Of a stretch of 64,000 nucleotides of DNA, positions 12,510 to 49,258 are shown piece after piece (the stretch's first letter is position 1; each line of letters starts with the position of its first letter). Under the pieces are notes generated by a model. It worked only from the letters and a program-made list of their open reading frames with translations. It was not told the DNA's origin and did no database searches. Position numbers and translations under genes: made by a program. Source of the DNA: PVC group bacterium (lineage in GTDB: Bacteria; Omnitrophota; Gorgyraeia; B26-G9); assembly GCA_024231215.1 (NCBI GenBank), contig JAAEQR010000072.1, positions 129,210 to 193,209 on the forward strand, written 5' to 3'.

Positions 12510-14894
12510 ATGAAAAGGAAAAGTATGCTTTATCAGAAAAAAATATGGGGAATAAGAATAGCGTGTGTAATTGTCATGTTTATTCTGGGGGGAAGTATTG
12601 CTGTCCAATCTGCGCCGGATTCTTATGTTACAAGTATTGTGGAAAAAATTGAACAGGATATGAATGCTTTGTCTAAAGAGTTGGAATTAAATAAGCAGGC
12701 TTACGAAAAATTGAAATCTGAACATGCGCAGAAACAACAGACATTGGTCGTTCGGGATAGAGAGATTGAAGTTTTGCATAAGAAAATTACGCAATCAAAG
12801 AAAGAGTTTTCAGAGAAACAACAGGCATTGGTCGTTCGGGATAGAGAGATTGAAGTTTTGCATAAGAAAATTACGCAATCAAAGAAAGAGTTTTCAGAGA
12901 AACAATATAAATTGAACCGGAAAGATGATGAAATTGCGAAGATTAAACAAGAGGCGAGTAGTTTAAAAAAAGAGGCACTGCAAAAAAACAAGATGGTGGC
13001 AAGCAAAGATGAAGAAATTACGGATTTGCAGGAACAGCTTAAAGATTTTGATGTTCTTCTGAAAAGTGCGCATGAAACTATAAATAAGTTGAGACATGAT
13101 GATTCTAATAAAGATATAGCTATAGAATCAGTTCGCGAAGAATTGCAAAAAACAGAAGATTCATTTTTGGATAAGATTCAGTCAGAGAGGGATTCTTTTG
13201 ATGAAAGGCTGGCTAAAGCTAATGAAGTAGCTGAAAAACTCAGGAATCAAAATAAAAAACAAGCACTTGAATATATACAGCAAATTCAGGAGAAAGAGGG
13301 ACAGATAAAAGTTTCTCAGAAAACTATTAATCAGAAGAATGAGATAGTAACAGGACTGAATAGTGAGCTGGATAAAGAAAGGTTGGCAAATGAAAATTTG
13401 CGTAGTCAGTATAATATCTCAGGAGACGAGAAGAAACAACTGTTGGCAACAATACATGAGTTGGAAACAGAGATAAGCAAGCAGTCTTTAAAGCTAAAAG
13501 CAAATCAGCAAAACCTGAGCAATGCAAATAAAGACCAGAGCACACTGAAACAGGATTATGATAAACTTCAAGAGGAACATGAAAAGATTCGTAATGAAAA
13601 GGAATTGTATTTAAGTAAAGTCTATTATTATGAAAAACAGCTAGAAGAAAAAGATAAGAAACTACAGGCATTACGTGACGATATACAGAGACAGGTGTCT
13701 TTATTGCATCATCAGCTGGGTGGGGTAGTTCAGGTTTCCCAGGAGACTGATTCTCAGGGGCAGCAGCTTAAGGATAAAAAAGCTGAGCTTGAACAGGTTA
13801 AATTGCAAACAAGACAGGCTGAACGTGATTTTCAGGAACAATTAGGAAAGATGAGCAAGGAAAATAAAAAATTGCTGGAACAGAGTAATAAGCTAGTTGA
13901 AGAAAAATTACAGATTCTAGCACATATGTTGCAGCTGGAAGAAGAGCAGACAATAGAAAGTGAGGCAGGGATTGCTCCGGATATAGAGCATGAGCTAGTG
14001 TATATAAAGAATGAGTTAATAAATCTAAGTGCGTCTTTAGATCAGAAAGGGCTTGAATTAACTAAACTACAAGAGGAAAATTATAAATTATTTAAAGAAA
14101 AAAATGAGCTGCGTAATATTCTTCATGAATATAATGAACAGCTGTTGGCCAAAGATAAAAAGTTTAAGCATGCACAGCAGATAATGAAACAGAAAGAAAA
14201 GTCTCAGGGTTCAAGATCTAAGGAAATTAAAAGAGATCTTGATGTCCAGATGCGGAAATTCAGAAAGGTCAATGCTGATTTTGAGAAAAAAAATGTTTTA
14301 TATGAAAAAGATATGAAGAAATATTTATCTCAGCTGAATGATTTAAGGGATAAATTAGCTATTTCTAGAGATCAATATGAGAGTGCGAAAAAGGATCGTG
14401 ATTCTTATGCTAAGCGTTTGAAGGATATTTACGCGGATGAGAGAGATTGGCAGAAAAAAGATGCACAACAATTAACGCTGTTAAGCAGTTATTCCAAAAA
14501 CATAGATGAATTGAATGCAAAGATACATACTCTTAATACGGATAATAAACGACTTAGTTTACTGCTTAAGACTATGCCGGAAAAATTGCAGACATTGGAA
14601 AATGACGTTGGTAATCTACGTAAGCAGAATGCCACATTGCATTATAATTTAGGTGTATTTCATACCCAGCGACAGGAATATACACAGTCTATAGCTGAGT
14701 TTAGTCAGGCTTTGAAGTTTAACTCTAGTGATGCTAGCACACATTATAATCTGGGTGTTATATATTCTCAATATTTAATTGATGAATCAAAGGCAGTAGT
14801 ACATTTTAAACATTACCTTGTTTTGGCTCCAAATGATAAGGATATACAAAGGGCAAAAGAGTATATTCTGCTTTGGGGGAATAGAGGTAGGTAA
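12510..14894 (+). CDS. long coiled-coil protein with signal-anchor N-terminus and C-terminal TPR repeats (MshN-like?)
   Basis: N-terminal hydrophobic segment, about 650 aa of heptad-rich K/E/Q sequence, then a C-terminal YNLGVFHT...YNLGVIY TPR pair. ATG at 12510 is preferred over the 12480 start, which overlaps the secretin. Confidence 0.6.
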   Translation: MKRKSMLYQKKIWGIRIACVIVMFILGGSIAVQSAPDSYVTSIVEKIEQDMNALSKELELNKQAYEKLKSEHAQKQQTLVVRDREIEVLHKKITQSKKEFSEKQQALVVRDREIEVLHKKITQSKKEFSEKQYKLNRKDDEIAKIKQEASSLKKEALQKNKMVASKDEEITDLQEQLKDFDVLLKSAHETINKLRHDDSNKDIAIESVREELQKTEDSFLDKIQSERDSFDERLAKANEVAEKLRNQNKKQALEYIQQIQEKEGQIKVSQKTINQKNEIVTGLNSELDKERLANENLRSQYNISGDEKKQLLATIHELETEISKQSLKLKANQQNLSNANKDQSTLKQDYDKLQEEHEKIRNEKELYLSKVYYYEKQLEEKDKKLQALRDDIQRQVSLLHHQLGGVVQVSQETDSQGQQLKDKKAELEQVKLQTRQAERDFQEQLGKMSKENKKLLEQSNKLVEEKLQILAHMLQLEEEQTIESEAGIAPDIEHELVYIKNELINLSASLDQKGLELTKLQEENYKLFKEKNELRNILHEYNEQLLAKDKKFKHAQQIMKQKEKSQGSRSKEIKRDLDVQMRKFRKVNADFEKKNVLYEKDMKKYLSQLNDLRDKLAISRDQYESAKKDRDSYAKRLKDIYADERDWQKKDAQQLTLLSSYSKNIDELNAKIHTLNTDNKRLSLLLKTMPEKLQTLENDVGNLRKQNATLHYNLGVFHTQRQEYTQSIAEFSQALKFNSSDASTHYNLGVIYSQYLIDESKAVVHFKHYLVLAPNDKDIQRAKEYILLWGNRGR
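12731..12898 (+). repeat. perfect in-frame 84-bp tandem duplication (2 units) inside the coiled-coil gene
   Basis: GAAACAACAG(A/G)CATTGGTCGTTCGGGATAGAGAGATTGAAGTTTTGCATAAGAAAATTACGCAATCAAAGAAAGAGTTTTCAGA occurs twice back to back, encoding ...LVVRDREIEVLHKKITQSKKEFSEKQQ twice. Confidence 0.85.
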
Positions 14895-14903
14895 AAAATC
14901 GAA

Positions 14904-16730
14904 ATGCAAAAGTCAAAAATGAAAAAAATAGAGATAGCTATTACCTTAATGATTCTTTTTGCGAGTGGTAGTTTTGTATGCGCCGAAGATGTTCAGCAAT
15001 ATGCGGCTTTGTCTTCTTCTGCTCCTACTCAAGGGGTAATATCTAATTTAGCTATTTCCAGAGAATGTATGTCGTTAGATTTAAGGGATATTGATGTGAA
15101 AGACGCTTTGAAATATTTAGCTTCAAGGGCAAATATGAATATTGTCCCGACTAATGATGTTTCCGGTCGGATTACGTTGATGATCAAAAATGCGCCTTTG
15201 TCAGATATTTTTGATATTGTTATCCGTTCTAATGGATTGGCATACGAGAAAATAGGTAGCATTTACAATGTTATGACAGATCAGGAATATGTAGATCGGT
15301 ATGGAAAAAAATTTGATGATATTCGTCAGCTTAAAGTGTTTCATTTAACATATGTGGTTCCTGAGCAGGCATTTGCGATTATTGATTCTATAAAGAGTAA
15401 TATTGGTACAGTATTGTTAAACTCAGAGTCTGGAACGATTGTAGTGTTGGATACTCCTGATATTATAGCGGAAATTGATATTGCTTTGCAATCGTTAGAA
15501 CGTAAAAACAGTATTCAGATATTTGATTTGAAATATGCAAACGCAAAAGATATCGCGAAACAGCTGAAAACACAACTGGATAAAAAGAAAGCGGGAAAGA
15601 TCAGAGCTGATCTTCGGACTAATCAGGTTGTTGTTGAGACATTGCCTGAAAGGATGAAGGATATCGCGCGTCTTATTAAGGGGCTGGATAAAAAAACCAA
15701 AGCGGTATTAATTGACGCGCGAATTATTCAGGTGAAGTTAAGTGATGATTTAAGTAGTGGGGTAGAGTGGGAAGGTTTGTTTGATGTTACTACTGCAGGT
15801 GGGGCGACTACTTATTTTGGCAGTACTCCAGTTGCTTCTATGCAAAGTCAGGTTGGCACTTGGCGTTCTCGGCAAACAGTACTTAGTGATACCGGGTATA
15901 TAGGTTCATATCCTTTTAGCGGGACGAGTACTGATTACGATTCTGGTACAAAAAAAGTACTTAGTGAAGAAATGCATGTCGGAGTTGTTGGTGAAAATGA
16001 CTTTGATGTTCTTATTACATATCTTAAGACCTTGGGTAAAGTGAAAATATTATCTAATCCTAAGTTATCGGTGACTAATAATCAGGAAGCACGAATACAT
16101 GTGGGAGAACGACAGGCATATATAACCTCTATTACTACTGCGGGGCAAACCACAACTACAGTGTCAGAAGAGGTGACTTTTCTTGATGTAGGTTTGCAGC
16201 TATTTCTCACGCCGTGCATAAACGATGAAGGATATGTAACTTTAAATATAAAACCGGAGATAAGCAGTGTGGTGGGATATTTGACTACTGCTCAGGAGAA
16301 TAAAATTCCGATAATTGATACTTCTACGGCTGAAACAACAGTTCTGGTAAAAGATGGGTCGACTGTGGCTGTGGGAGGATTGCGTCGGGATGAAAAAACA
16401 ATAAATTCAAAAGAAGTTCCTTTGTTAGGTAGAATTCCTTTTTTAGGAACTCTTTTTAAGTCAGAAGAAAATAAAAATAAACGCAGTGAATTATTAATTA
16501 TGGTTACAGCTCATATTGTAGAAGGTGATGAATTAACTACAGGAAGATCCAGCGAGTTTAAACATAAATTAGATAAGGAATATCAGGATTATCAATCGAT
16601 TAATAGGGAGTCCGGATTGACTGAATATGAAAAAGAAAAAAATATAACTATTCAACAAAAAATGTATCAAAAATATCCGGGGTATGATGAGGAAGAAGAA
16701 CTTCAGCCAACCATAAAACCATTAAGGTAG
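14904..16730 (+). CDS. secretin, paralog of the 10721 gene
   Basis: Same architecture and collinear similarity: DIDVKDALKYLASRANMNIV..., NPKLSVTNNQEARIHVGERQAYI..., TTVLVKDGSTVAVGGLRRDE..., VPLLGRIPFLGTLFKSE..., ELLIMVTAHIV. Confidence 0.85.
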   Translation: MQKSKMKKIEIAITLMILFASGSFVCAEDVQQYAALSSSAPTQGVISNLAISRECMSLDLRDIDVKDALKYLASRANMNIVPTNDVSGRITLMIKNAPLSDIFDIVIRSNGLAYEKIGSIYNVMTDQEYVDRYGKKFDDIRQLKVFHLTYVVPEQAFAIIDSIKSNIGTVLLNSESGTIVVLDTPDIIAEIDIALQSLERKNSIQIFDLKYANAKDIAKQLKTQLDKKKAGKIRADLRTNQVVVETLPERMKDIARLIKGLDKKTKAVLIDARIIQVKLSDDLSSGVEWEGLFDVTTAGGATTYFGSTPVASMQSQVGTWRSRQTVLSDTGYIGSYPFSGTSTDYDSGTKKVLSEEMHVGVVGENDFDVLITYLKTLGKVKILSNPKLSVTNNQEARIHVGERQAYITSITTAGQTTTTVSEEVTFLDVGLQLFLTPCINDEGYVTLNIKPEISSVVGYLTTAQENKIPIIDTSTAETTVLVKDGSTVAVGGLRRDEKTINSKEVPLLGRIPFLGTLFKSEENKNKRSELLIMVTAHIVEGDELTTGRSSEFKHKLDKEYQDYQSINRESGLTEYEKEKNITIQQKMYQKYPGYDEEEELQPTIKPLR

Positions 16731-26112: not shown

Positions 26113-27248
26113 TCCCGCTAGGTATATATCTTCATATCCCTTTTTGTATCAAGAAATGTCTTTACTGTGATTTTAACTCTGTAGAGTTGAAGCAACGCAA
26201 GGAGATAGATCAATATATTGCTGCGTTGAAAGAGGAAATTTATTTTTGCAGTAAAGATGTTTTCTCCCGAACAGTAAAGAGTATATATTTTGGAGGAGGA
26301 ACGCCGTCTTTATTAACAGAGGAAGATGTAAATTGTCTTGTTGCTGCAATAAAAGAAAAATTTTCACTTTTACCGGAAGCAGAGATAACTTTAGAAGCTA
26401 ATCCAGCTACAATTTGCTATGAACAGCTTCTTGGATATAAAAATGCCGGGATAAACAGGATTAGTCTAGGGGTTCAGTCTTTCCAGGATAAATATTTAAA
26501 GATATTAGGACGAATTCATACCGGCAAAGATGCCCTGGAATCGATAGAGTTACTACGTCGGGCGGGTTTTTCCAATATTAGTATTGATCTTATGTATGGG
26601 TTACCTGGACAGGATTTAAAGGGCTGGACAGATGATTTGGCTCGATTTATATCTTTGGGGCTTGAACATATCTCTTTTTATGACCTAAAGATAGAAAAAA
26701 ACACACCGTTTTATCCTATGAGGGATGAATTATTTTTACCTAAGGATGAGCTTCAGATTGATATGTATAAAAGGGGGATTGAAAAACTAAAAAAAGCCGG
26801 GTATCGGCATTATGAAATATCTAGCTTTGCTAAAGAGGGGAAAGAGTCAAAGCATAATCTTGTTTATTGGGAAAACAAGGAATATTTGGGGATTGGGGCA
26901 GGGGCTTACTCCTATTTGAAAGGAACAAGATTCAGGAGGCATAAATCTATAAATACATACCTAGAAGAGGCAGCGAAAACTGATTTTAAGGGTTATGATC
27001 AGGAAAATTTAGATATAGGGAGGAGCATCAGGGAAACTATAGCTTTAAATCTCAGGATTTTAGATGGAGTCTCCTTGACTAAGATTGCGAAAGAAAGAGG
27101 AATAACAATAGATAATGGTCTTTTAGATAGATTTAACCATTTGCAAGCTCAAGGGTTAATTGATATAGAGGGGGAGCAATACCGGCTTACCCAGAGGGGT
27201 ATATTATTTTATGATACAGTGGCAGGGGAGATATTAGTGTTAGATTAA
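26109..27248 (+). CDS. hemW: radical SAM heme chaperone HemW / oxygen-independent coproporphyrinogen-III oxidase-like
   Basis: LYLHIPFCIKKCLYCDFNS radical-SAM CxxxCxxC N-terminus and HemN-like C-domain. 379 aa. Confidence 0.7.
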   Translation: MIPLGIYLHIPFCIKKCLYCDFNSVELKQRKEIDQYIAALKEEIYFCSKDVFSRTVKSIYFGGGTPSLLTEEDVNCLVAAIKEKFSLLPEAEITLEANPATICYEQLLGYKNAGINRISLGVQSFQDKYLKILGRIHTGKDALESIELLRRAGFSNISIDLMYGLPGQDLKGWTDDLARFISLGLEHISFYDLKIEKNTPFYPMRDELFLPKDELQIDMYKRGIEKLKKAGYRHYEISSFAKEGKESKHNLVYWENKEYLGIGAGAYSYLKGTRFRRHKSINTYLEEAAKTDFKGYDQENLDIGRSIRETIALNLRILDGVSLTKIAKERGITIDNGLLDRFNHLQAQGLIDIEGEQYRLTQRGILFYDTVAGEILVLD

Positions 27249-27290
27249 CCCTTGATATTTTTTTTAGTTCATGGTATAAAATAGCAGAAT

Positions 27291-27377
27291 GCGGAGATGG
27301 TGGAATTGGCAGACACGCTAGCTTGAGGGGCTAGTGGGAGCAATCTCATGAGGGTTCAAGTCCCTCTCTCCGCACCA
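27291..27377 (+). tRNA. tRNA-Leu (anticodon GAG)
   Basis: Acceptor stem GCGGAGA/TCTCCGC. Anticodon stem CTAGC/GCTAG with loop TTGAGGG. Long variable arm, T-loop GGTTCAAGTCC, encoded CCA. Confidence 0.85.
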
Positions 27378-27434
27378 AGTTCTTCTTTGATCCCCTCCAG
27401 ATACAAGTATTTTCCAGTTTTTTCCCTGTGCCCC

Positions 27435-27463
27435 TTGCAAAGTCAAAATAGTTGTGGTATATT
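27435..27463 (+). promoter_or_regulatory. candidate promoter upstream of repeat copy 1
   Basis: TTGCAA, 17-nt spacer, TG-extended TATATT. Confidence 0.4.
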
Positions 27464-27494
27464 TTATTTGTTTATCTTCTCTAAGGGGCAGCAT

Positions 27495-27606
27495 AAATAT
27501 TAAATATAAATTTGGGGATACGAAGTGAAACGTCCTTATTTCTCCATATAAGGCGTTAATAAGAAGACCCCTACTTCCCCCGTTCTTCGTATCCCCTTTT
27601 TTTTGT
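27495..27606 (+). repeat. structured terminator-like repeat element, copy 1
   Basis: AAATTTGGGGATACGAAG ... CCCCTACTTCCCCC ... CTTCGTATCCCC followed by TTTTTTTT. The 12-bp closing stem is perfect. Confidence 0.6.
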
Positions 27607-27610
27607 TAGA

Positions 27611-27639
27611 TTGAAAAATGGCTCAAGATATGATATAAT
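27611..27639 (+). promoter_or_regulatory. candidate promoter between the two repeat copies (leader of the 27854 gene)
   Basis: TTGAAA, 17-nt spacer, TGaTATAAT (extended -10). Confidence 0.5.
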
Positions 27640-27724
27640 TTCAATGTAATATGTATGGGCTGAAGCAAAAAAAGAGGGAGGAAGGGGTTTTTCTATTCTC
27701 TTAAAGTAAAGCAATTAAAAAAGT

Positions 27725-27826
27725 TATATAAAATTTTTAAATTTGGGATGCGAAGATTAGATTCGCCTTATCCCCTAAGGCGATTATTGGCCCCTACTTC
27801 CCCCTATCTTCGTATCCCCTTTTTTA
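27725..27826 (+). repeat. structured terminator-like repeat element, copy 2 (possible attenuator in the leader of the 27854 gene)
   Basis: AAATTTGGGATGCGAAGA ... CGCCTTATCCCCTAAGGCG ... CCCCTACTTCCCCC ... TCTTCGTATCCC followed by CTTTTTT. 12-bp stem with one G-U pair. Ends 28 nt before the RBS/TTG of the next gene. Confidence 0.6.
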
Positions 27827-27853
27827 TACCCATTTCTTTGGGGGGAGCTTAAT

Positions 27854-29494
27854 TTGACAGATTTTTATAAGAAATTACAATATGCCAGCCTAATTTTGAT
27901 CATCTTTTCATGTATTTCCCCCGTAAGTGCCCAAGAAGAGACATTTCTAAAAACCAAAATTGAAAAAATTGGTAATTCTAAGCGAAGTGAAATTAATCAG
28001 ATAAATCAGGTATTACGTAATCTGGATATTCCCAAAGAAATAGGTATGGTTAAAGAAACTTATATGCCTCGCAGTCCGAAGGCTAATCTTATTATTACAA
28101 TTCAGGATTTACATTGCCATTATCAAGCCCAAAAAAACATTGCTGCTATACTAAATTATCTTACTAATAATTTTGCGTTAAAACTTATCAGTATTGAAGG
28201 GGGCGCAGGTCCGATCGATACGGTGTTTTACCGTGAGTTGCCGGATGAAAGAATCAAAGAACAGGTAGCAGAATATTTTTTAAAAGAAGCTCGTATTAAC
28301 GGTACAGAGTATTTTGCGATAACGACAAATAAAGAAATTGCGCTTTATGGAGCTGAAGATTCTAAATATTATGATTGGAATTTAGAGGCGTTTTTAGATG
28401 CTTTGCCGAAACGGGAAAAAATACTTAAAGATGTTGCGGTTTTAGAAAATGCACTGAATATCTTGAAAGATCGTATATATAATAAGCGGTTAAAAGAATT
28501 AGATAATTATATAGTTGCTTATGAAAATAAAACGATATCATTTGAAGACTATATTTTAAATATAGAAAAACAGTATTCTAAGACTAAACTAATTAGAGAT
28601 TTTAAGCAGGTTGCTCAACTTGCCGAAAGTATTCATATAAAAAGAGAAGTTAATTTGGTAGCAGCAGAAAAACAACGAGGTGAATTAATTGATTATTTAT
28701 CAACAAAATTGCCCAGGAGAGAATTAGAAGAATTTTTACGAATCACTTTAGAGTTTAAGACCAAGACGGTAAAGGCATCGGAGTATCATAGTAAACTGAA
28801 AGAACTTTATGAGAAGACTATTGAAAAAACAAAGACTTTTGAACAGAATTGGCCGGATCTTAGTGAATATATCGTTTATTTGGATAAATATGAGACGTTG
28901 GATGATATTGAGCTTTTTAATGAAATAGATAAAGCTTTGGATGGAATAAAAAATAGTCTATATACAAGTTATACTCAAAAAAAGTTAGACCGAAATTTAA
29001 CAATAATACGCTTAGCGAGAAACCTTTTCTCCACAAAATTACTGCCACGGGATTTGCCGATAATCGATAAATATCGTAATGAGTTCAATGCGAAAAAAAT
29101 GGCTAAATTTATTAAACGTCAATCAAGAAGATTAACCCTTGATTTGCCGGTTCCAGCAGAATTAGAAGATATAGAAGATACTTTGCCGATGGTGGAAGAT
29201 TTTTATTATTATGCTTCACAGCGTAATGAAATTTTAGTAGACAATACTCTGGCATATATGAAGAAAGAAAACCAAGATGTGGGAATATTAATAACCGGTG
29301 GTTTTCATACCGATGGGATAACCGAGGATTTACGCGATAAACGTATTCCGTATGTTGTAGTAATTCCTCAAATAGATGCTCTTGAAGAGAATGATACTCG
29401 TTATATTGATGCCCTGAAGGGAAAAAAGACCCGTTTTGAAACAATGTTGGAAGGGGCAACTGATTCTGTACGAGATTTCTATTTTGGGAAGTAA
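27854..29494 (+). CDS. exported TraB/GumN/TIKI-family protein (putative)
   Basis: TTG start preceded by GGGGGAG. Signal peptide present. C-terminal VGILITGGFHTDGITEDLRDKRIPYVVV resembles the TraB/GumN GxxHLxG...V motif. Confidence 0.35.
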   Translation: MTDFYKKLQYASLILIIFSCISPVSAQEETFLKTKIEKIGNSKRSEINQINQVLRNLDIPKEIGMVKETYMPRSPKANLIITIQDLHCHYQAQKNIAAILNYLTNNFALKLISIEGGAGPIDTVFYRELPDERIKEQVAEYFLKEARINGTEYFAITTNKEIALYGAEDSKYYDWNLEAFLDALPKREKILKDVAVLENALNILKDRIYNKRLKELDNYIVAYENKTISFEDYILNIEKQYSKTKLIRDFKQVAQLAESIHIKREVNLVAAEKQRGELIDYLSTKLPRRELEEFLRITLEFKTKTVKASEYHSKLKELYEKTIEKTKTFEQNWPDLSEYIVYLDKYETLDDIELFNEIDKALDGIKNSLYTSYTQKKLDRNLTIIRLARNLFSTKLLPRDLPIIDKYRNEFNAKKMAKFIKRQSRRLTLDLPVPAELEDIEDTLPMVEDFYYYASQRNEILVDNTLAYMKKENQDVGILITGGFHTDGITEDLRDKRIPYVVVIPQIDALEENDTRYIDALKGKKTRFETMLEGATDSVRDFYFGK

Positions 29495-29704: not shown

Positions 29705-30451
29705 ATGAAATTAGTCCAAAATAGAAAATTTAGCTGGGTTCTCAGATTTAGCGTAATGCTGCTTATCCAGGCAGTGTTGACGGTAAATACTGTCTGGGCA
29801 AGTTTGGACAGTAATACCTTGGCACCTAGACTTGCGGTTAATATAGAAAGTTTTAAAGAGAAAATAGCAGTTTCTAGAATAACTTTAGATAAGTATTTAC
29901 AAAAAGAAGAGAAGCGAAGGGTACGGGCAGAAAAGCGTCAGAGAGAAAAGCTGGAGAGGAAAAAAGAAGCTGCCGAACTTAAAGGTGAGTATGAAAAATA
30001 TAAAAAATATACTATTGGTGATCTTAGAAAAAAACTTAAGCTGGGTAAGGAAATATTAGTATCGAATTTTCAGATAGTTCCGGGCATAGGTAATATTCGA
30101 GCAGCTGTTATTGGCAATGAAGTATTACTTAGAAGTCAGAATGCAACATTATGGCTTACATTTCGGTATGATGGGACAGAGATTTTTATCGGAGGTAAAA
30201 AGTTTTACAGAATTGAGAATGAAAATGTTTTGGTAGATGATGACAATTATGAAAATAGAATAAAACTGGAACAAGTTGGAAATCGACTTATTCTTGATTT
30301 AGATAAAATAACTGGGAATAAAGATATAGATAGATTTTTTGGACGAAAGAAACAAAAAGCAACAACTGAATTATCAGAAGGATTAATTAAAGATAGGATC
30401 CCGGATACACCTGAGGAGTTGTTAGGTTTATTGCTGGAACAGGCGATATAG
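29705..30451 (+). CDS. exported hypothetical protein
   Basis: Signal peptide ...VMLLIQAVLTVNTVWAS shares the MLIQ..T.NTVWA core with the next gene. No known domain. Confidence 0.4.
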   Translation: MKLVQNRKFSWVLRFSVMLLIQAVLTVNTVWASLDSNTLAPRLAVNIESFKEKIAVSRITLDKYLQKEEKRRVRAEKRQREKLERKKEAAELKGEYEKYKKYTIGDLRKKLKLGKEILVSNFQIVPGIGNIRAAVIGNEVLLRSQNATLWLTFRYDGTEIFIGGKKFYRIENENVLVDDDNYENRIKLEQVGNRLILDLDKITGNKDIDRFFGRKKQKATTELSEGLIKDRIPDTPEELLGLLLEQAI

Positions 30452-30471: not shown

Positions 30472-32652
30472 TTGATAGTTATGAATAGAAATTCCAGAAT
30501 AATAGTTAAATTAGTGATTATCATGCTTATACAGATGATGATGACGGGGAATACTGTCTGGGCTTTGTCTCCTCATATACAAGTGCAAAATGCAGAGATG
30601 AGAAATGTATTTACTGACTCTGCTATTGATCAGGCACTTGAATATGAAAGAAAAATTCATGAAGAACTCAAACAAGAATTTGACAAGTCAAGAATTTGCA
30701 ATTTACCTAATAGGCAAAGATTTTTAGAAGATTTAGTCGAGGATCTGGATCAGGGGAAAAAGATTCAGGCGGTATATCTTAATATTCAAAATTTCAAGGG
30801 GGAATTTAATGATTTTGGGGATGCTTTGGATGAACTGGCAAAGTGGTATAAACAGGATAAAATGAGTGTTATTGGACATGAATTTGGCGATTTTGGGATT
30901 CAGGCTGTTGCTGAGTATTTGACAACATCGTTAAGGCAGATGCTGGGACAGACAGGGAATAGTAATGTCACATTCAAGATTTATAATGATGCAAAAAGTT
31001 TCTGGGTTATATTTGAGGATTTACCGGACTGGTTTGATGCTAAAGAAATTTTAGTTAAACTTCTGTCAGATGATTTTGCTTTTAAAAGTAATGTGGTTAA
31101 GAGAATTAAACAACGTATGGAAGAAAGAATTCAAAACAAAGAGCAAACAGGAGAAGTTGATTTAGTAAAAGCTAAAAAATTGAGAAATAGAATGAAAGAA
31201 TTTAATGAAAATAATTTTAATATCTATGCAGGTGTTTCCCAATTATTTACTCGCCAGAAAAATCAGAGTATTATTGCTACAGCTCATACTATAGATTCAC
31301 AGGTTCTTTTAGCTGCAAAATTTGCGCAGTTTAATTTGATAAATCATGATTTGGCAGCTGAGCAGAAAAAAAGGGTTAATGATGAAGAAGGACTGAAACA
31401 GTGGTTGAGGGGGGTTGTAGCAGAGTGTCGTGAGGCAAGAAAAAGCCGGGTAGAATCGTTTAACTTGGACTTGAGAAAGAAAGTGAGATTATACAAAAAA
31501 TATGGTCAAAGAGAAGAGTTGGAATCGATTTATACCCCTATTAAACAAGTATACGATGATGCCAATACTTATAAAAAACTTATGCAGAGATATGAAGCAG
31601 CATTGGAGACTAAAGATATTAATTTGATAAAAGAAGTTAAAAAAAATGCTTTCTGGAAGATGGTTGTATATCCTTTGGGTGATTTTTTAGATGGAATTGC
31701 AGCCAGACCAATATTCTCAGGAAATCAGAGAGTTGCGGATATGATAAATCATATAGTATTAAATCAGCCAGACCGGAATTGGTCAGGTACGTTTAAAATT
31801 GGTGGGGATGAATTTGTTAAGATAGTATGGGAAGCTGGAGAAGATAGATTATATAGTTATATTTACAGTTTTGATGTGAATAATTTAGGTCGAACTAATA
31901 TTCAATGGGGGGTAAGAGTTGGCGATATGCTTTTAGATACTATGGTCTGGCTGTTTGATGAACTGGAAAACCCAGATATGGAATATATCTATAAGTTTTT
32001 CCGGAACGAGAATAAAAAAGTAAAGAATTTTCGTGATTTAAATGTAGAGATTACAGCGAATGACTATGCATATCTTAGGGTGATGATGTCGGAAAATGGC
32101 AGAGATATTGAGGACTATACTTATACTAGAGATGGTAAGTACTATTTAGAACAAATACCTCCGGTACGGGTAGAAGTAGAAGATGAAAAGACAGGTGAAA
32201 TGACAGAGTATTATTCTACGCCTTTTGCGGCAATAGGTATGGTTCATGTTGATACGAAAGTAGTGCACAGGGCAAAATTAAGTAATGCTGAACCATTTAA
32301 TATCTACAGAAATTACGGTCCGGTACGTGGTCGTGCTGATAGTGCTTCATTAAGGGTAAAGGAATTTATAAAAAAATATCAACTTTATAATGGCGGAAAT
32401 GTTTCTCCTGATGCTCTTAAGAAAGCGAAAAGAAGGATGGAAGCTGACGCTTTGGAAGAAAAAGCTATTATTACGTTTAAAGAAGAAAAAATGTCGTTAT
32501 TGCAAAGAGAATTAGCAGAGTTTATTTTTGCACATTATGTTGAGCTTTCTGACCCGAGCAATAGTTCAAGAGATCAGGATGCGAATATTATTACCCAGGA
32601 TCATTTAAACGGGATGGAAGTGTCGTCTGAGTTGTGTGAACAGGCGATTTAA
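30472..32652 (+). CDS. large exported or membrane-anchored hypothetical protein containing a literal GGDEF motif
   Basis: Signal/anchor ...IIMLIQMMMTGNTVWAL. Internal ...GNQRVADMINHIV...FKIGGDEFVKIV and an earlier NIQNFKGEFNDFGDALDEL segment weakly resemble GGDEF-domain blocks. Confidence 0.35.
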   Translation: MIVMNRNSRIIVKLVIIMLIQMMMTGNTVWALSPHIQVQNAEMRNVFTDSAIDQALEYERKIHEELKQEFDKSRICNLPNRQRFLEDLVEDLDQGKKIQAVYLNIQNFKGEFNDFGDALDELAKWYKQDKMSVIGHEFGDFGIQAVAEYLTTSLRQMLGQTGNSNVTFKIYNDAKSFWVIFEDLPDWFDAKEILVKLLSDDFAFKSNVVKRIKQRMEERIQNKEQTGEVDLVKAKKLRNRMKEFNENNFNIYAGVSQLFTRQKNQSIIATAHTIDSQVLLAAKFAQFNLINHDLAAEQKKRVNDEEGLKQWLRGVVAECREARKSRVESFNLDLRKKVRLYKKYGQREELESIYTPIKQVYDDANTYKKLMQRYEAALETKDINLIKEVKKNAFWKMVVYPLGDFLDGIAARPIFSGNQRVADMINHIVLNQPDRNWSGTFKIGGDEFVKIVWEAGEDRLYSYIYSFDVNNLGRTNIQWGVRVGDMLLDTMVWLFDELENPDMEYIYKFFRNENKKVKNFRDLNVEITANDYAYLRVMMSENGRDIEDYTYTRDGKYYLEQIPPVRVEVEDEKTGEMTEYYSTPFAAIGMVHVDTKVVHRAKLSNAEPFNIYRNYGPVRGRADSASLRVKEFIKKYQLYNGGNVSPDALKKAKRRMEADALEEKAIITFKEEKMSLLQRELAEFIFAHYVELSDPSNSSRDQDANIITQDHLNGMEVSSELCEQAI

Positions 32653-32768: not shown

Positions 32769-34931
32769 ATGCCTATTTATAATTCTAGACAGAAAATAAA
32801 ATCAGGAATGACGCTTGGCGGTATTGGTGCAGGCAAGCTGGAAATCACTCCTTACGGAACCATAGATTATCTGACTCTCCAGAACAATTGGACTAATCCG
32901 CTAAAAAATCAAACCAATCAGGAAAAAGCAAAAGCACAGGGAGTGGCTGGTTTTCATTTTGCGTTGCATGTTAATACGCAGGCTGCGGTTGTCTGTAAGC
33001 TCTTACAGACAGAAAAAATCCAGGATTACAATACAATTAAACATATAGATTTTAATGCAAAGTTTCCGTTTGCCAATCTTACTTATAAAGATGATAATCT
33101 TCCGGTGGAGATATCCCTTTGTGCATATTCTTTTTTAATCCCCGGAGATGTTAAACATTCCAGCCTTCCGGCCGTGGTATTTGAATTCCAGATAAAAAAT
33201 AAGATTCATAAGGAAATAGAAGTAGGATTATTATCTATAGGCAGAAATATTATAAGCTGTAATTCGGTAGGTCGTTTTAATGCTTTGCGGAAGGAAGGTA
33301 AGCTTATAGGCATAGAATTTTCTCATGAAAAACCTTTGGCACATGATACAACTGCGGGAGATATGTTTATGGCTGTGCCTAAGAAGAGTGGAGAGATTAG
33401 TTTTTGGAGCCAGTGGAATATGCAGCGTGAGAAGTTTTGTTTTGAGCCGAATGTTGGGCTTGATGCTTTCGAGTATTTTGAAAAAGAAGGTTGTTTGCCG
33501 AATATAACTTCACATAAACCGACAGAAAGTCAGAGTGTTGAGCTCGGTGCTGCTTTGGCGGTAAATTCTACCCTTAAACCGCATGAACAGAAAAAAATAC
33601 CCTTTATTCTAACCTGGAATTTTCCGCGGCATTTTCAGGGACATTTTTATGAACGCGGTTTTAATAAAAGTCGGGATACTGCAGTTTATATATCAAAAAA
33701 CTTAGATAATTTAAAAGGTTCTACGACACAGCTGCCGATGATTTTAAATGAAATGGAGACTCCTGACTGGCTTAATGATGCTTTGATGAATAATTTATAT
33801 CCATTATTTTCTTCTACATGGTTTACCCGAAAGTCTGATTTTACGATGTATGAAGCACCGTTGTGTTGTCCTTTGATGGGAACTCTGGATGTGTATTTTT
33901 ATGCTTCTGTAGCTGTGGGATTTCTTTTCCCGGGGTTAGATAAACGTGCGCTTATGCTTTTTAAAAAGAATATGCGTAAATCAGGATATGTGCCGCACGA
34001 TATTGGCTATGAACGTATTGATTTACCGTCTAACGGGACAACTACTCCATTGTGGAAGGATCTTAATTCTAAACTTATTTTGCTTGTATATAAGGCGTAT
34101 TTAGGTTCAGGAGATCTAAAGTTTTTAAAAGAAATGTATCCAGCCCTTAAGAGAGCATTTGTATTCAGTCTGACGTATGATAAAAACGGAGATGGGTTAC
34201 CTGATAATGAAGGATTTGATACAACGTTTGATACTTGGGGCTTTACCGGAGCTAGTTCCTATAATGGCGGGGTGTTTTTAGTCGGACTTTTGGCGCTTAA
34301 ACGTATTGCAGAGATATTGAATGATAAAAAAACAGCTTTAAAATGTGTGCAGAGCTTTATGCGGGGAAGAAAGACAATGGAAGAAACGCTTTGGAACGGA
34401 AAATACTATATTACTGCTCTAAGCGATAATAAGAAATATGATTCATGCATGGTTGCCCAGCTTTTCGGGCAATGGTACGCATATCTTTTAGGATTGGGTC
34501 GAATGTTTCCGGAAGAAAATATCAAAAATTCAATTAGTTGGATATTTAAGTTAAATAATAACGATTCTCCGTTTGGAGCTACGAATTCTGTGTTTTTAAA
34601 CCGAAAGCGTGATGAACAGTACTATCACTCACGTAATATCTGGCCTGGAGTATGTTATTCTTTTGCCGCACTGGCTATCCATGAAGGTTTTGTAAAAGAA
34701 GGACTGAAATTAACGAAGAAAGTCTGGGATACTTTGAGTGTGAAAAATAAGAATCCCTGGAATCAGCCGGATGTAATAATTGCAAAAGACGGGAGTTTTG
34801 GGTTTGGTGATTATTATATGAGAAATATGGTGATCTGGGCGGTTCTTTTGGCTTTAGCGGAAAAAGATAAAAAAGTCAGAAGAGGGTTGGAAAAGATAAA
34901 AGAATTAGTGAATTCTCACATCACGCCTTAA
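32769..34931 (+). CDS. glycoside hydrolase family 116 (GBA2-type beta-glucosidase/glucosylceramidase family)
   Basis: N-terminal ...GMTLGGIGAGKLEITPYGTI...NNW matches the GH116 N-domain start. C-terminal (alpha/alpha)6-like region with DGLPDNEGFDTTFDTWGFTGASSYNGG. Confidence 0.65.
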   Translation: MPIYNSRQKIKSGMTLGGIGAGKLEITPYGTIDYLTLQNNWTNPLKNQTNQEKAKAQGVAGFHFALHVNTQAAVVCKLLQTEKIQDYNTIKHIDFNAKFPFANLTYKDDNLPVEISLCAYSFLIPGDVKHSSLPAVVFEFQIKNKIHKEIEVGLLSIGRNIISCNSVGRFNALRKEGKLIGIEFSHEKPLAHDTTAGDMFMAVPKKSGEISFWSQWNMQREKFCFEPNVGLDAFEYFEKEGCLPNITSHKPTESQSVELGAALAVNSTLKPHEQKKIPFILTWNFPRHFQGHFYERGFNKSRDTAVYISKNLDNLKGSTTQLPMILNEMETPDWLNDALMNNLYPLFSSTWFTRKSDFTMYEAPLCCPLMGTLDVYFYASVAVGFLFPGLDKRALMLFKKNMRKSGYVPHDIGYERIDLPSNGTTTPLWKDLNSKLILLVYKAYLGSGDLKFLKEMYPALKRAFVFSLTYDKNGDGLPDNEGFDTTFDTWGFTGASSYNGGVFLVGLLALKRIAEILNDKKTALKCVQSFMRGRKTMEETLWNGKYYITALSDNKKYDSCMVAQLFGQWYAYLLGLGRMFPEENIKNSISWIFKLNNNDSPFGATNSVFLNRKRDEQYYHSRNIWPGVCYSFAALAIHEGFVKEGLKLTKKVWDTLSVKNKNPWNQPDVIIAKDGSFGFGDYYMRNMVIWAVLLALAEKDKKVRRGLEKIKELVNSHITP

Positions 34932-34980: not shown

Positions 34981-35436
34981 ATGGAAAATAAGGTTATTGC
35001 GAGGAATAAAACGGCATTCCATCGCTACGATATCATTGAAAAAATCGAAGCAGGTATTGCTCTTAAAGGCACGGAAGTGAAGTCGCTTCGTAAGCATAAT
35101 GTTGATTTAAAAGACAGTTATGCCAGGGTCTCTAACGGTGAAGTATTTATTCACAATATGTATATAACTCCTTATGAAGAAGCTAGTTATAACAATGAAG
35201 AACCGCGACGTATTCGTAAGCTTTTATTGCATAAAAGAGAAATAGACAAACTCCTGGGTAAAGTACACCAGAAGAGCCTGACTATAATTCCGTTAAGCTT
35301 GTATTTTAATAATAAAGGAAAAGCTAAAATTGAACTGGCTGTGGCTAAAGGCCGGAAGATATATGACCAAAGGGAAAAGATAAAGAAGAAGGAAGTAGAA
35401 ATACAGTTACGCAAAGTCCAGAGTTTTAGAAAATAA
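34981..35436 (+). CDS. smpB: SsrA-binding protein
   Basis: Collinear with SmpB (…FHRYDIIEKIEAGIALKGTEVKSLR…). 151 aa. Immediately upstream of the tmRNA. Confidence 0.9.
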   Translation: MENKVIARNKTAFHRYDIIEKIEAGIALKGTEVKSLRKHNVDLKDSYARVSNGEVFIHNMYITPYEEASYNNEEPRRIRKLLLHKREIDKLLGKVHQKSLTIIPLSLYFNNKGKAKIELAVAKGRKIYDQREKIKKKEVEIQLRKVQSFRK

Positions 35437-35522: not shown

Positions 35523-35954
35523 GGGGGTGAAAGGTTTCGACTTAGGTTAATTTAGTAAGAGCAGCATGTCGAGGTGGTCGGGAGGCCTCGTAAAACACCT
35601 GACAAACACATAAACGCTGAAAGTAAAATTCCAGCTAGCGTAGATTCACTCATTTCAAAAATTGGTGAGGGTATTTCTCATCCGGTTTTTGGAGGAATGG
35701 CTCTAAGCCCAAGTGTTGCTTTAAGATAAAGCAACCCGCTTTTTAGTGAGTGTCTGTGGCATTAAAAAGCGTCATAAGCAGGCTCGTTAAATATGGTTAG
35801 TTTTTGACATATTTGATTAAACATTTCAAAAGCTGCCTTTGCAAGTATCTTGTTTGTCGGAGACTTGTTGAGAAAGATTAAATGACAGACTAAACATGTA
35901 GATACTCTTATTGGTTTCTTAAGGACGCGGGTTCAATTCCCGCCACCTCCACCA
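35523..35954 (+). ncRNA. ssrA: tmRNA (ssrA)
   Basis: 5' GGGGGUG pairs with 3' CACCUCC-ACCA, with a G3-U70 wobble. 3' tRNA-like end GGACGCGGGTTCAATTCCCGCCACCTCCACCA. Candidate resume codon GCU at 35616. Confidence 0.85.
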
Positions 35955-48301: not shown

Positions 48302-49258
48302 ATGGGTATTATGGACGAAAGTTATATAATGGATCAAATCCCCGTAAATATTACGCTTGCTTTAGGCGGGGGTGGTGTTCGCGGTCTTGCTCATATCGGA
48401 GTAATTAGAGCATTAGAAAAGATTACTCCAATTAATATGATTTCCGGGACAAGTATGGGCGCAATTGTTGGAGCGATGTATGCACTTAATCCGGACATTG
48501 AGAGGGTCGAAGAATTATTGATGACGCTTCTTGATAAAAAAGAGGTTAAGGAGATTGAACGATTGATTAGCGGGCATACTCCGGTAGAAGAGAAAAAACT
48601 AATTGTCCAGGGACTGCTTACCTTTGTAAAAAAGATGTATTTACTTAATTTGCGGGCGATAAAGAGATGGGTATTTAGTGGTAAAGAAATAACATCAATG
48701 TTTGGAGACCTGGGGCTGGATACTGATTTTAAACATGCTAAGATACCGATTTCCTGTGTAAGTGTGGATTTGCGTACCGGAGATGAAATAGTATTGAGTA
48801 AGGGGGCGATTATGGAGGCAGTACTAGCCTCGGTATCTTTACCCGGAGTTTTTCCTCCGGTGAAAAAAGGAAAACGTCTTTTAGTTGATGGTGGAATAAT
48901 CAGCAGTGTACCGGTAGATGCAGCAAGGAAGTTGGGAGGAGATATAGTTATTGCCATTGGGGTGGAAGCACAGGTTGATTATAATAAGAAGCTGGGGAAT
49001 GGATTTGATATAATGTTTCAGGCAGATGCGATAAGAGCTCGCAAATTAGCTGAAATAAAATTAGCTCAAGCGGATCTCGCTATCTGTCCCAAGGTGGGGG
49101 CGATTGGCTGGGCTAGTTTTTCGCGGGCAACTGAATGTATCGAGGCTGGGGAAAAAGCAGTTGAAAAAGCAAAGCCGAAAATCCTAGAGTTAATTAAGAA
49201 AAAGAGACGGGAAAAGTTTTGGAAAGGATTTTTCTCTTTTCCTAATTATAAAGAGTAG
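48302..49258 (+). CDS. patatin-like phospholipase
   Basis: LALGGGGVRGLAHIGV (Gly-rich oxyanion loop), GTSMGA (GxSxG serine) and DGG (catalytic Asp). Confidence 0.75.
   Translation: MGIMDESYIMDQIPVNITLALGGGGVRGLAHIGVIRALEKITPINMISGTSMGAIVGAMYALNPDIERVEELLMTLLDKKEVKEIERLISGHTPVEEKKLIVQGLLTFVKKMYLLNLRAIKRWVFSGKEITSMFGDLGLDTDFKHAKIPISCVSVDLRTGDEIVLSKGAIMEAVLASVSLPGVFPPVKKGKRLLVDGGIISSVPVDAARKLGGDIVIAIGVEAQVDYNKKLGNGFDIMFQADAIRARKLAEIKLAQADLAICPKVGAIGWASFSRATECIEAGEKAVEKAKPKILELIKKKRREKFWKGFFSFPNYKE

Follow-up and report, generated by a model that had tools for sequence, protein, structure and literature searches.

A pair of structured RNAs sharing an invariant C-rich tract at a conserved locus of Candidatus Omnitrophota: candidate sibling base-pairing regulators

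Two related RNA elements between tRNA-Leu(GAG) and gene X

The DNA analyzed in this study, referred to below as the window, is a stretch of 64,000 nucleotides (nt) of contig JAAEQR010000072.1 (positions 129,210 to 193,209 of the forward strand) from the PVC group bacterium assembly GCA_024231215.1, which is assigned to Omnitrophota, a phylum without cultivated members whose bacteria are mostly ultra-small and may depend on hosts. The window contains two structured elements, A (copy 1; 27514-27604, + strand) and B (copy 2; 27745-27825, + strand), located between a tRNA-Leu(GAG) gene and a protein-coding gene designated X (27854-29494, + strand). The tRNA gene (27291-27377, + strand; identified by ARAGORN and by the Rfam tRNA model with 53.7 bits) provides the upstream context and lies outside the RNAs described here. 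Element A was delimited by folding, by covariation and by a covariance model (CM R1; 90.4 bits on the + strand vs 30 bits on the - strand), and element B by the same approaches (CM R1; 101 bits). An earlier note on this DNA, made from the sequence alone, had described the two copies as paralogous; they are indeed paralogous structured RNAs of the + strand, and every sequence feature listed there for either copy was found where it had been placed.

Both copies have a closing stem of 12-13 bp (P1), an inner hairpin (P2), an unpaired CCCCUACUUCCCCC and a U-run. In type A (copy 1), P1 is formed by GGGGATACGAAG (27514-27525) and CTTCGTATCCCC (27585-27596) and encloses 59 nt. P2 (27529-27539/27548-27557) has a 1-nt bulge and may be accompanied by a third short helix, P3, between GAAG (27563-27566) and CUUC (27574-27577). 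The 14-nt C-rich tract (C-tract; CCCCTACTTCCCCC in the DNA) occupies positions 27568-27581, and P1 is followed by a U-tract encoded by eight T (27597-27604). In type B (copy 2), P1 pairs GGGATGCGAAG (27745-27755) with CTTCGTATCCC (27808-27818), with a fuller extent of 27745-27757/27806-27818(19). P2 of type B is a perfect hairpin, TCGCCTTA/TCCCC/TAAGGCGA (27763-27783; stem 27763-27770/27776-27783, loop UCCCC 27771-27775). The identical C-rich 14-mer is found at 27791-27804 and a U-tract of six T, which is missing or weak in most X-bearing orthologs, at 27820-27825. A 35-nt direct repeat (94%) and both inverted repeats were also recovered by a repeat finder, and the 14-mer occurs twice in the 64 kb (0.26 occurrences expected). 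The predicted folds of A and B have energies of -31.2 and -29.3 kcal/mol (z = -6.0 and -5.3), and none of 200 shuffled sequences folded as well.

The secondary structure was evaluated in alignments of the type A and type B sequences, with 500 shuffles per alignment as one control and a shift of the 3' partners (slid control) as another. When all 27 sequences were considered, 96.9% of the cells in the P1 and P2 core (17 pairs) were paired and eight double-sided changes were present, and none of the 500 shuffles reached the observed values; in this joint alignment seven of the 12 P1 pairs had changed on both sides, and the slid controls were 41-54% paired. Among the 13 type A sequences, P1 was 99.4% paired, with five of 12 pairs changed on both sides, and P2 (10 bp with the 1-nt bulge) was 94.6% paired, with two such pairs; no shuffle matched the score or the percentage paired, and 2-3 of 500 did so for two pair/type counts. 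In the 14 type B sequences, P2 was 100% paired (two pairs changed on both sides; five of eight never vary) and P1 with its extensions 86.1% (nine pairs changed on both sides), making 11 such pairs overall, with 0/500 shuffles on every measure. The possible P3 of type A can be formed in every copy; it cannot covary, since one of its sides is located in the invariant C-tract. No conserved partner for the C-tract was found inside the element. In the structural model, P1 and P2 display the C-rich strand in a one-sided internal loop.

A simple terminator scan of the window called neither A nor B, because their stems enclose ~60 nt and not a loop of 3-8 nt. The term "terminator-like", applied to both copies in the earlier note, fits the long stem with its U-run; it does not account for the covariation of P1 or for the conservation of the C-tract and P2, which extends far beyond the needs of a terminator.

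Conservation, synteny and transcription signals

The distribution of the elements was examined with several patterns. A search of 185,579 species-representative bacterial and archaeal genomes with the C-rich 14-mer followed by a T-run identified 20 loci, of which 11 were full-length relatives (from 10 metagenome-assembled genomes (MAGs) of Candidatus Omnitrophota and one MAG labelled Planctomycetia) and the remaining nine were bare chance matches. Each genome had one or two family hits, every one at the syntenic locus. A second pattern, consisting only of the hairpin and 5' stem of copy 2 with the C-tract left unconstrained, was used in a metagenome scan and detected five more contigs, all carrying the same C-tract, which was shortened by one C in one case. 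Three further loci were fetched solely via orthologs of protein X. These also have A after tRNA-Leu(GAG), B just before X and an unchanged C-tract, and gave CM scores of 85-100 bits. Across all of these loci, including those retrieved without any constraint on it, the C-tract is invariant, with the B copy of locus L024 (one C shorter) as the sole exception. A CM built from 27 sequences detected no copies in the window other than these two, and a single A and a single B in the related loci; + strand scores were 72-102 bits, and no - strand score exceeded 35 bits.

In total, one A and one B were found at the same syntenic place in ~19 diverged Omnitrophota genomes or metagenome contigs. The conserved gene order is a TPR/peptidase-MA protein, a HemW-like radical-SAM protein, tRNA-Leu(GAG), A, sometimes one inserted gene, B and gene X. 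The tRNA-Leu(GAG) gene precedes type A in 13 of the 14 orthologous loci with this element, the other being L009, which is cut close to the element. The identity of HemW between element-bearing genomes is 47-58%, and mean identity is 77% for the A core, 89% for the B core and 51% for the B leader. Since the RNA cores are so much better conserved (77-89%) than HemW, the duplication that gave rise to A and B must predate the divergence of these lineages, and both copies must be under strong purifying selection. The two types are distinguished by constant traits. In type A, P2 is bulged, its loop varies, and the C-tract is flanked by the purine run GAAGA on the 5' side and by GUU on the 3' side. 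In type B, P2 has 8 bp and always the loop UCCCC, the C-tract is preceded by UUAUUGG, and P1 is lengthened by 2-3 pairs.

The MAG labelled "uncultured Planctomycetia bacterium" contains a full locus of the Omnitrophota type (L002, CAZAPE010000102.1; HemW, tRNA-Leu, A, gene, B, X), which suggests either a mislabelled bin or a wider spread within the PVC group.

In an Rfam 15 scan of the 64 kb at the gathering threshold, a check that the earlier note had proposed, only tRNAs and tmRNA passed, and no family matching A or B was found. In the region 27200-27950, at E values up to 10, the best non-tRNA match was Yfr17, with 26.7 bits against a threshold of 50 and on the opposite strand. The T-box model gave no match in this region at E up to 10, and the element is separated from tRNA-Leu by a promoter of its own. 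A scan of viral contigs produced two chance matches, both rejected by the CM, and no family member. Searches of the accessible literature with the phylum name and the motif sequence found no description of this RNA, and those by phylum name no report of a regulatory RNA in Omnitrophota. We conclude that A and B constitute a real, well supported and previously undescribed RNA family, which appears to be restricted to a Candidatus Omnitrophota lineage. The comparative support for the pair is unusually clean, making it a candidate for inclusion in RNA family databases and for use in MAG annotation.

The attribution of a separate promoter to each copy, also made in the earlier note, is borne out by the orthologous loci, where these promoters are kept. 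The putative promoter of A (27435-27463, + strand), recognized by a consensus scan, consists of the -35 box TTGCAA (27435-27440), a 17-nt spacer with TGg, and the -10 box TATATT (27458-27463), and the corresponding consensus cTTGnAA-N17-TGnTATAyT was present upstream of all 13 aligned type A copies and in three further loci. The putative promoter of B and the X leader (27611-27639, + strand; 11/12 in the consensus scan) consists of TTGAAA (27611-27616), a 17-nt spacer with TGa, and TATAAT (27634-27639); aTTGAAA-N17-TATGgTATAAT precedes B in 13 of 14 aligned loci and in three more. Transcription would be expected to start near 27470 and 27646, respectively. In the 13 aligned copies the distance from the type A promoter to the end of the element is 99-182 nt, with one at 285 nt. 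From the -10 box of B to the end of B the distance is near-constant (183-201 nt).

A clear U-tract follows type A in 15 of 16 copies (it is weak in L035). The 12-bp P1 is directly followed by 6-9 T in the window and in 12 of 13 aligned type A copies; AAA precedes the T-run in L009. Type A thus combines the stem and U-tract of an intrinsic terminator with a fresh promoter downstream, and where a gene follows A, it carries its own promoter of the same type. On these conserved signals, A is predicted to be a promoter-to-terminator small RNA (sRNA) of ~135 nt in the window with a 5' leader of variable length, close to the ~140-nt sRNA that had been proposed for copy 1. No small open reading frame (ORF) is conserved in the A or B transcripts, and there is no conserved leader peptide after the G-rich tract described below.

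The promoter type itself is widespread in this lineage. The consensus cTTGnAA-N17-TGnTATA(A/C/T)T, with an extended -10 box, is found before the RNAs and before neighbouring protein genes, including those downstream of A in L001, L002, L011, L018 and L025, and could serve to annotate transcription starts in these MAGs.

The reading of A and B as ordinary intrinsic terminators, or as inverted repeats of the REP (repetitive extragenic palindromic) or MITE (miniature inverted-repeat transposable element) type duplicated by chance, could draw on the long inverted repeat followed by a T-run and on the presence of two copies in one intergenic region. It is nevertheless very improbable. There are two copies in 64 kb and one or two per genome, always in the syntenic position, and no family member was detected on viral contigs. 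Neither copy is located directly after a gene in need of a terminator, both lie downstream of conserved promoters, and the interior (P2 and the C-tract) is better conserved than the stem. Moreover, A and B are each conserved across genomes whose proteins are ~50% divergent. As each genome has a single A and a single B, and their locus is always the syntenic one, the elements are not a generic dispersed REP-like repeat, the outcome under which the earlier note would have abandoned its interpretation. A plain terminator and a dispersed repeat were rejected on the basis of copy number, synteny, promoters and interior conservation.

The leader of gene X and its complementarity to the C-tract

B is the predicted 3' domain of a conserved X leader of ~190 nt and near-constant length. 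Sequence conservation in this leader extends to a AAAGAAGUUA-like block, two G-runs followed by a U-run and AUUUC (from 27674-27692 onward), and a AUUUUAAAAG-type box located 20-30 nt upstream of B (27714-27723, + strand; ATTAAAAAAG in the window). In alignments of 13-14 loci, the AUUUUAAAAG-type box is the most conserved block of the leader. The Shine-Dalgarno (SD) sequence and start codon of X lie within ~10-25 nt after B; in the window they are GGGGGGAG (27840-27847) and the TTG at 27854 (together 27840-27856, + strand).

The product of X is a predicted secreted protein of 546 amino acids (aa) with an N-terminal signal peptide and no known family, and is identical to the "hypothetical protein GY853_03295 [PVC group bacterium]", whose public annotation starts at the same TTG. 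Downstream of B, orthologs of X with 44-63% identity (several cut by the end of the locus) are present in 10 of the loci retrieved by DNA pattern; these, the three loci fetched via X and the window make up the 14 X-bearing loci considered below. Searches of Pfam and NCBIfam with X gave nothing significant. An AlphaFold model (mean pLDDT confidence 83.5) had no PDB fold match below E = 0.05, the erythromycin-esterase-like 3b55 ranking seventh with a TM-score of ~0.2. The label "TraB/GumN-like" earlier given to this gene could therefore not be upheld, as neither the family databases nor the fold comparison returned such a hit. Distant homologs of X (28-32% identity) are encoded inside pgsA-pgpA operons, where there is no intergenic space and no element; this phospholipid context hints at an envelope-related role for the X family. 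A paralog of X is present in the window genome (P0003), and the X paralog loci of other MAGs (L026 and L036, in a PilZ context) have neither the element nor the G/U tract described below. These paralogs (L026 14168-17076; L026/L036) stand beside genes for PilZ-domain proteins and giant ORFs, one annotated with 11,887 aa. A strong promoter-like sequence of the window, TTGACA-16-TACAAT (11/12; 27854-27881), shares its first three letters with the TTG start codon of X and could be a chance occurrence or an internal promoter.

The earlier note had seen in copy 2 the geometry of a transcription attenuator or of a riboswitch expression platform. At least five T directly after P1 of B were found in two of the 14 X-bearing loci (the window and L002). 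In loci without X, B is followed by a GH116 gene (L009) or by another gene (L006, with its duplicate L023), and in both L006 and L009 it has eight T. Because the U-tract of B is mostly missing or weak where X is present, termination at B before X is not a conserved function; in the window it may be a lineage-specific feature, and the attenuator proposal could apply at most to this lineage. An expression platform is likewise unlikely, since A is followed by its own terminator and a fresh promoter, and B persists without X.

These data also bear on the broader idea that A and B are tandem riboswitch or attenuator units, i.e., ligand aptamers whose P1 doubles as a terminator and which control the downstream gene in cis. 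Covarying stems around a highly conserved internal loop, the location of B in a 5' leader and its short, fixed spacing from the X SD, the U-run after P1 in both window copies and a possible antiterminator role for the alternative G-tract pairing described below would all suit such units. However, the sequence after A contains a terminator and then either a fresh promoter serving the next gene or, directly, that of B, so that A controls nothing in cis, and B, which persists in loci without X, has no U-tract in most of those with X. A single gene family is found downstream, and distant homologs and paralogs of X are devoid of the element. Known aptamer cores also differ from the conserved loop, in which a C-rich strand on one side faces no conserved strand on the other, and there is no Rfam match. 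We consider riboswitch function improbable.

The G/U-rich tract of the leader (GAGGGAGGAAGGGG plus UUUUU; 27674-27692, + strand) shows complementarity to the C-tract and, in A, also to the purine run before it. Two G-runs and a U-run are kept at this position in every X-bearing locus, and in the X-less loci L006 and L009 the G tract is absent or reduced to GGG. The G-runs face both C-runs of the C-tract, with a variable internal loop between them. The G/U tract matches A beyond B on both flanks: the U-run faces GAAGA, and the AAC that one clade has before the G-run faces the GUU of A. For X-bearing loci, the predicted duplex between the leader tract and the internal-loop strand of A has an energy of -25 to -34 kcal/mol, and for L006 and L009 of -10 and -2 kcal/mol. 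The A strand binds the leader tract more strongly than the B strand does in 10 of 12 loci. In the window, the tract is the joint best site for the A strand (-27.2 kcal/mol) among 12,792 windows of the + strand (mean -7.9, standard deviation 4.0).

The earlier note had suggested the 5' GGGGA of P1 as an alternative partner with which the C-rich tract could form an antiterminator. Both are invariant, and the leader G/U tract is a longer conserved partner. The linker between the C-tract and the 3' strand of P1 has a length of only 3 nt, so P1 presumably cannot coexist with a full G:C helix, and in minimum-energy folds of the full leader the pairing between G-tract and C-tract replaces P1 in five of 13 loci, including the window. 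For the SD GGGGGGAG of X, pairing with CUUCCCCC in the C-tract is also possible (8 bp, one of them a G-U; -15.1 kcal/mol), the third best value among 50 gene starts of the window.

Several further complementarities were noted. A leader hairpin AAAGAAG/CUCUUUUU could present the G tract, but it was not scorable owing to the unreliable alignment in this region. The terminator tail of A, UCCCCUUUUUUUUG (27592-27605), is complementary to CAAAAAAAGAGGGA (27666-27679) at the start of the leader G tract; therefore, if transcription of A ran on past its terminator, the resulting RNA could pair in cis with the B leader. G-rich sites complementary to the C-tract are located upstream of a secretin gene (GGGGGAAUAGAGG, 14865-14880; gene at 14904) and upstream of priA (GGGGGUUAGGGGG plus a U-run, 1917-1935; gene at 1949). 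Both are in the 3' end of the preceding coding sequence and are possible trans targets or chance matches.

We put at about even the chances that A and B are sibling C-rich base-pairing regulatory RNAs, with the X leader as a target in cis and in trans. As C-rich sRNAs with anti-SD-like sequences do, the exposed C-rich strands would seed pairing with G-rich targets. One target would be the G/U tract of the X leader, bound in cis by the C-tract of B, in competition with P1, and in trans by A, and the occupant of the tract would decide whether P1 is formed. In the window, P1 with its U-run would then cause termination before X; in most relatives, the effect of P1 would instead be to remodel the RNA adjacent to the SD. 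Since A and B are both kept, with intact C-tracts and U-tracts, at loci from which X is absent, they would have to have further targets in trans.

A number of observations weigh against this base-pairing model. It predicts opposite outcomes, namely termination in the window and SD access in the relatives, and it uses transcript ends placed only by promoter and terminator consensus. The internal-loop strand of A is 3-4 nt longer than that of B, which favours A in the duplex comparison. The leader site is no outlier within the window: a site in coding sequence at 48356 ties with it for the A strand, and for the B strand it ranks approximately eighth. The RNAalifold consensus of the whole leader retains only P1 and P2. 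The C-tract never varies (save for the one lost C), which makes compensatory changes between C-tract and G-tract impossible to show; any G-rich tract pairs with the C-tract, and the central positions of the G tract are free to vary. The complementarity of the SD to the C-tract, good in the window, is inconsistent across orthologs and weak in several of them. Finally, the P2 stem CGCCUUA/UAAGGCG is more conserved than a scaffold needs to be, which fits recognition by a protein at least as well.

A protein partner is indeed the basis of another explanation, according to which the C-tract, the UCCCC loop and the P2 stem are recognized by an RNA-binding protein (e.g., a pyrimidine binder of the KH, cold-shock or S1 type), with B tying the expression of X to this protein and A serving as a decoy or sponge. 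Sequence conservation that reaches into the helices (five of the eight P2 pairs of type B never vary), a C-tract that is invariant in every locus but L024 and the persistence of A and B where X is absent are all compatible with protein binding. Still, no candidate protein is linked to the elements, whose neighbours are HemW, the TPR peptidase and proteins without assigned function, and protein binding by itself leaves unexplained the X-linked G/U tract complementary to the C-tract. We regard this explanation as rather unlikely.

Within the base-pairing model, a more specific arrangement can be envisaged, although its probability is also low: a sibling-mimicry switch, in which the leader combines a receiver with B, a built-in paralog of the trans regulator A, and the two siblings compete. 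The leader would hold the G/U receiver and, ~100 nt downstream, the B copy of the seed domain of A. During transcription the receiver would capture the C-tract of B and block P1. Abundant free A, matching better on both flanks, would take the receiver instead, and B would then fold P1 and P2, altering termination or SD access for X. If this competition model is true, it represents a new wiring of sRNA to target, with a leader carrying a domesticated paralog of its own regulator; if it is false, the invariant C-rich loop still marks a conserved RNA or protein partner in this lineage.

Other features of the window and comparison with known regulatory RNAs

Nearly all ORFs of at least 120 aa in the window (1-64000) lie on the + strand, and each 2-kb bin has a strongly positive GC skew (+0.12 to +0.37) at a G+C content of 33-42%. 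These values suggest that genes throughout the window are extremely biased toward the leading strand. Downstream of X, a GH116 glycoside hydrolase gene (32769-34931) precedes smpB (34981-35436, + strand), which is directly followed by a tmRNA gene (35523-35954, + strand; 182.8 bits) that is long at 432 nt. The two genes after X (29705-30451 and 30472-32652) have no assigned family, and the same is true of the genes inserted between A and B in related loci (L004 7171-, L011 5196-6269, L014 2684- and L018 5277-6509, in coordinates of the element-oriented loci). An "LIQ(A/T)" motif, possibly a sorting signal specific to this lineage, is common to the N-terminal hydrophobic segments of the products of both groups.

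Compared with intrinsic terminators and attenuators, the elements have a similar G+C-containing stem with a U-run (15 of 16 type A copies; B in the window) and an upstream complementary tract that could act as an antiterminator. They differ in that the stem encloses a conserved 60-nt domain and in that the U-run of B is not conserved where the downstream gene is present.

Paralogous and leader-derived regulators offer further parallels. GlmY and GlmZ are a homologous sRNA pair that competes for the protein RapZ, and SreA and SreB of Listeria are trans-acting sRNAs derived from riboswitches. Like GlmY/GlmZ, A and B are two paralogs with one recognition surface that could compete for a common partner, and like SreA/SreB, the element in the 5' leader could act in trans once terminated. 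However, the common partner is a protein, RapZ, in the case of GlmY/GlmZ, and the only one identified for A and B is an RNA tract of the X leader, recognized from sequence alone.

Repeated sibling RNAs are also known from Alphaproteobacteria, where CcsR1-4 and the "cuckoo"/alpha-r14 RNAs are tandem anti-SD sRNAs consisting of simple hairpin repeats co-transcribed with an upstream gene; their CCUCCUCCC-like loops mimic the anti-SD sequence. A and B, in contrast, are diverged paralogs with putative promoters of their own and another architecture.

In kind, the pair also resembles RsaE/RoxS and LhrC1-5 (Listeria), base-pairing sRNAs of Firmicutes whose C-rich "UCCC motif" binds G-rich SD regions. 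These are short RNAs with their own transcription, an intrinsic terminator and several C-rich motifs in loops or single strands, and the LhrC RNAs are in addition adjacent sibling copies, each with its own promoter. By its sequence signals A has its own promoter and terminator, and the C-rich motifs of the family are unpaired in the predicted, covariation-supported structure. There is no homology in sequence or structure with RsaE/RoxS or LhrC, and the Rfam scan, which included RsaE, gave no hit. The 14-nt seed of A and B would be presented in an internal loop whose closing 12-bp helix doubles as the terminator stem, one of the two siblings lies within a predicted mRNA leader, and the host belongs to another, uncultivated phylum. 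The pair provides a concrete and testable case in which one sibling RNA would be free and the other embedded in an mRNA leader.

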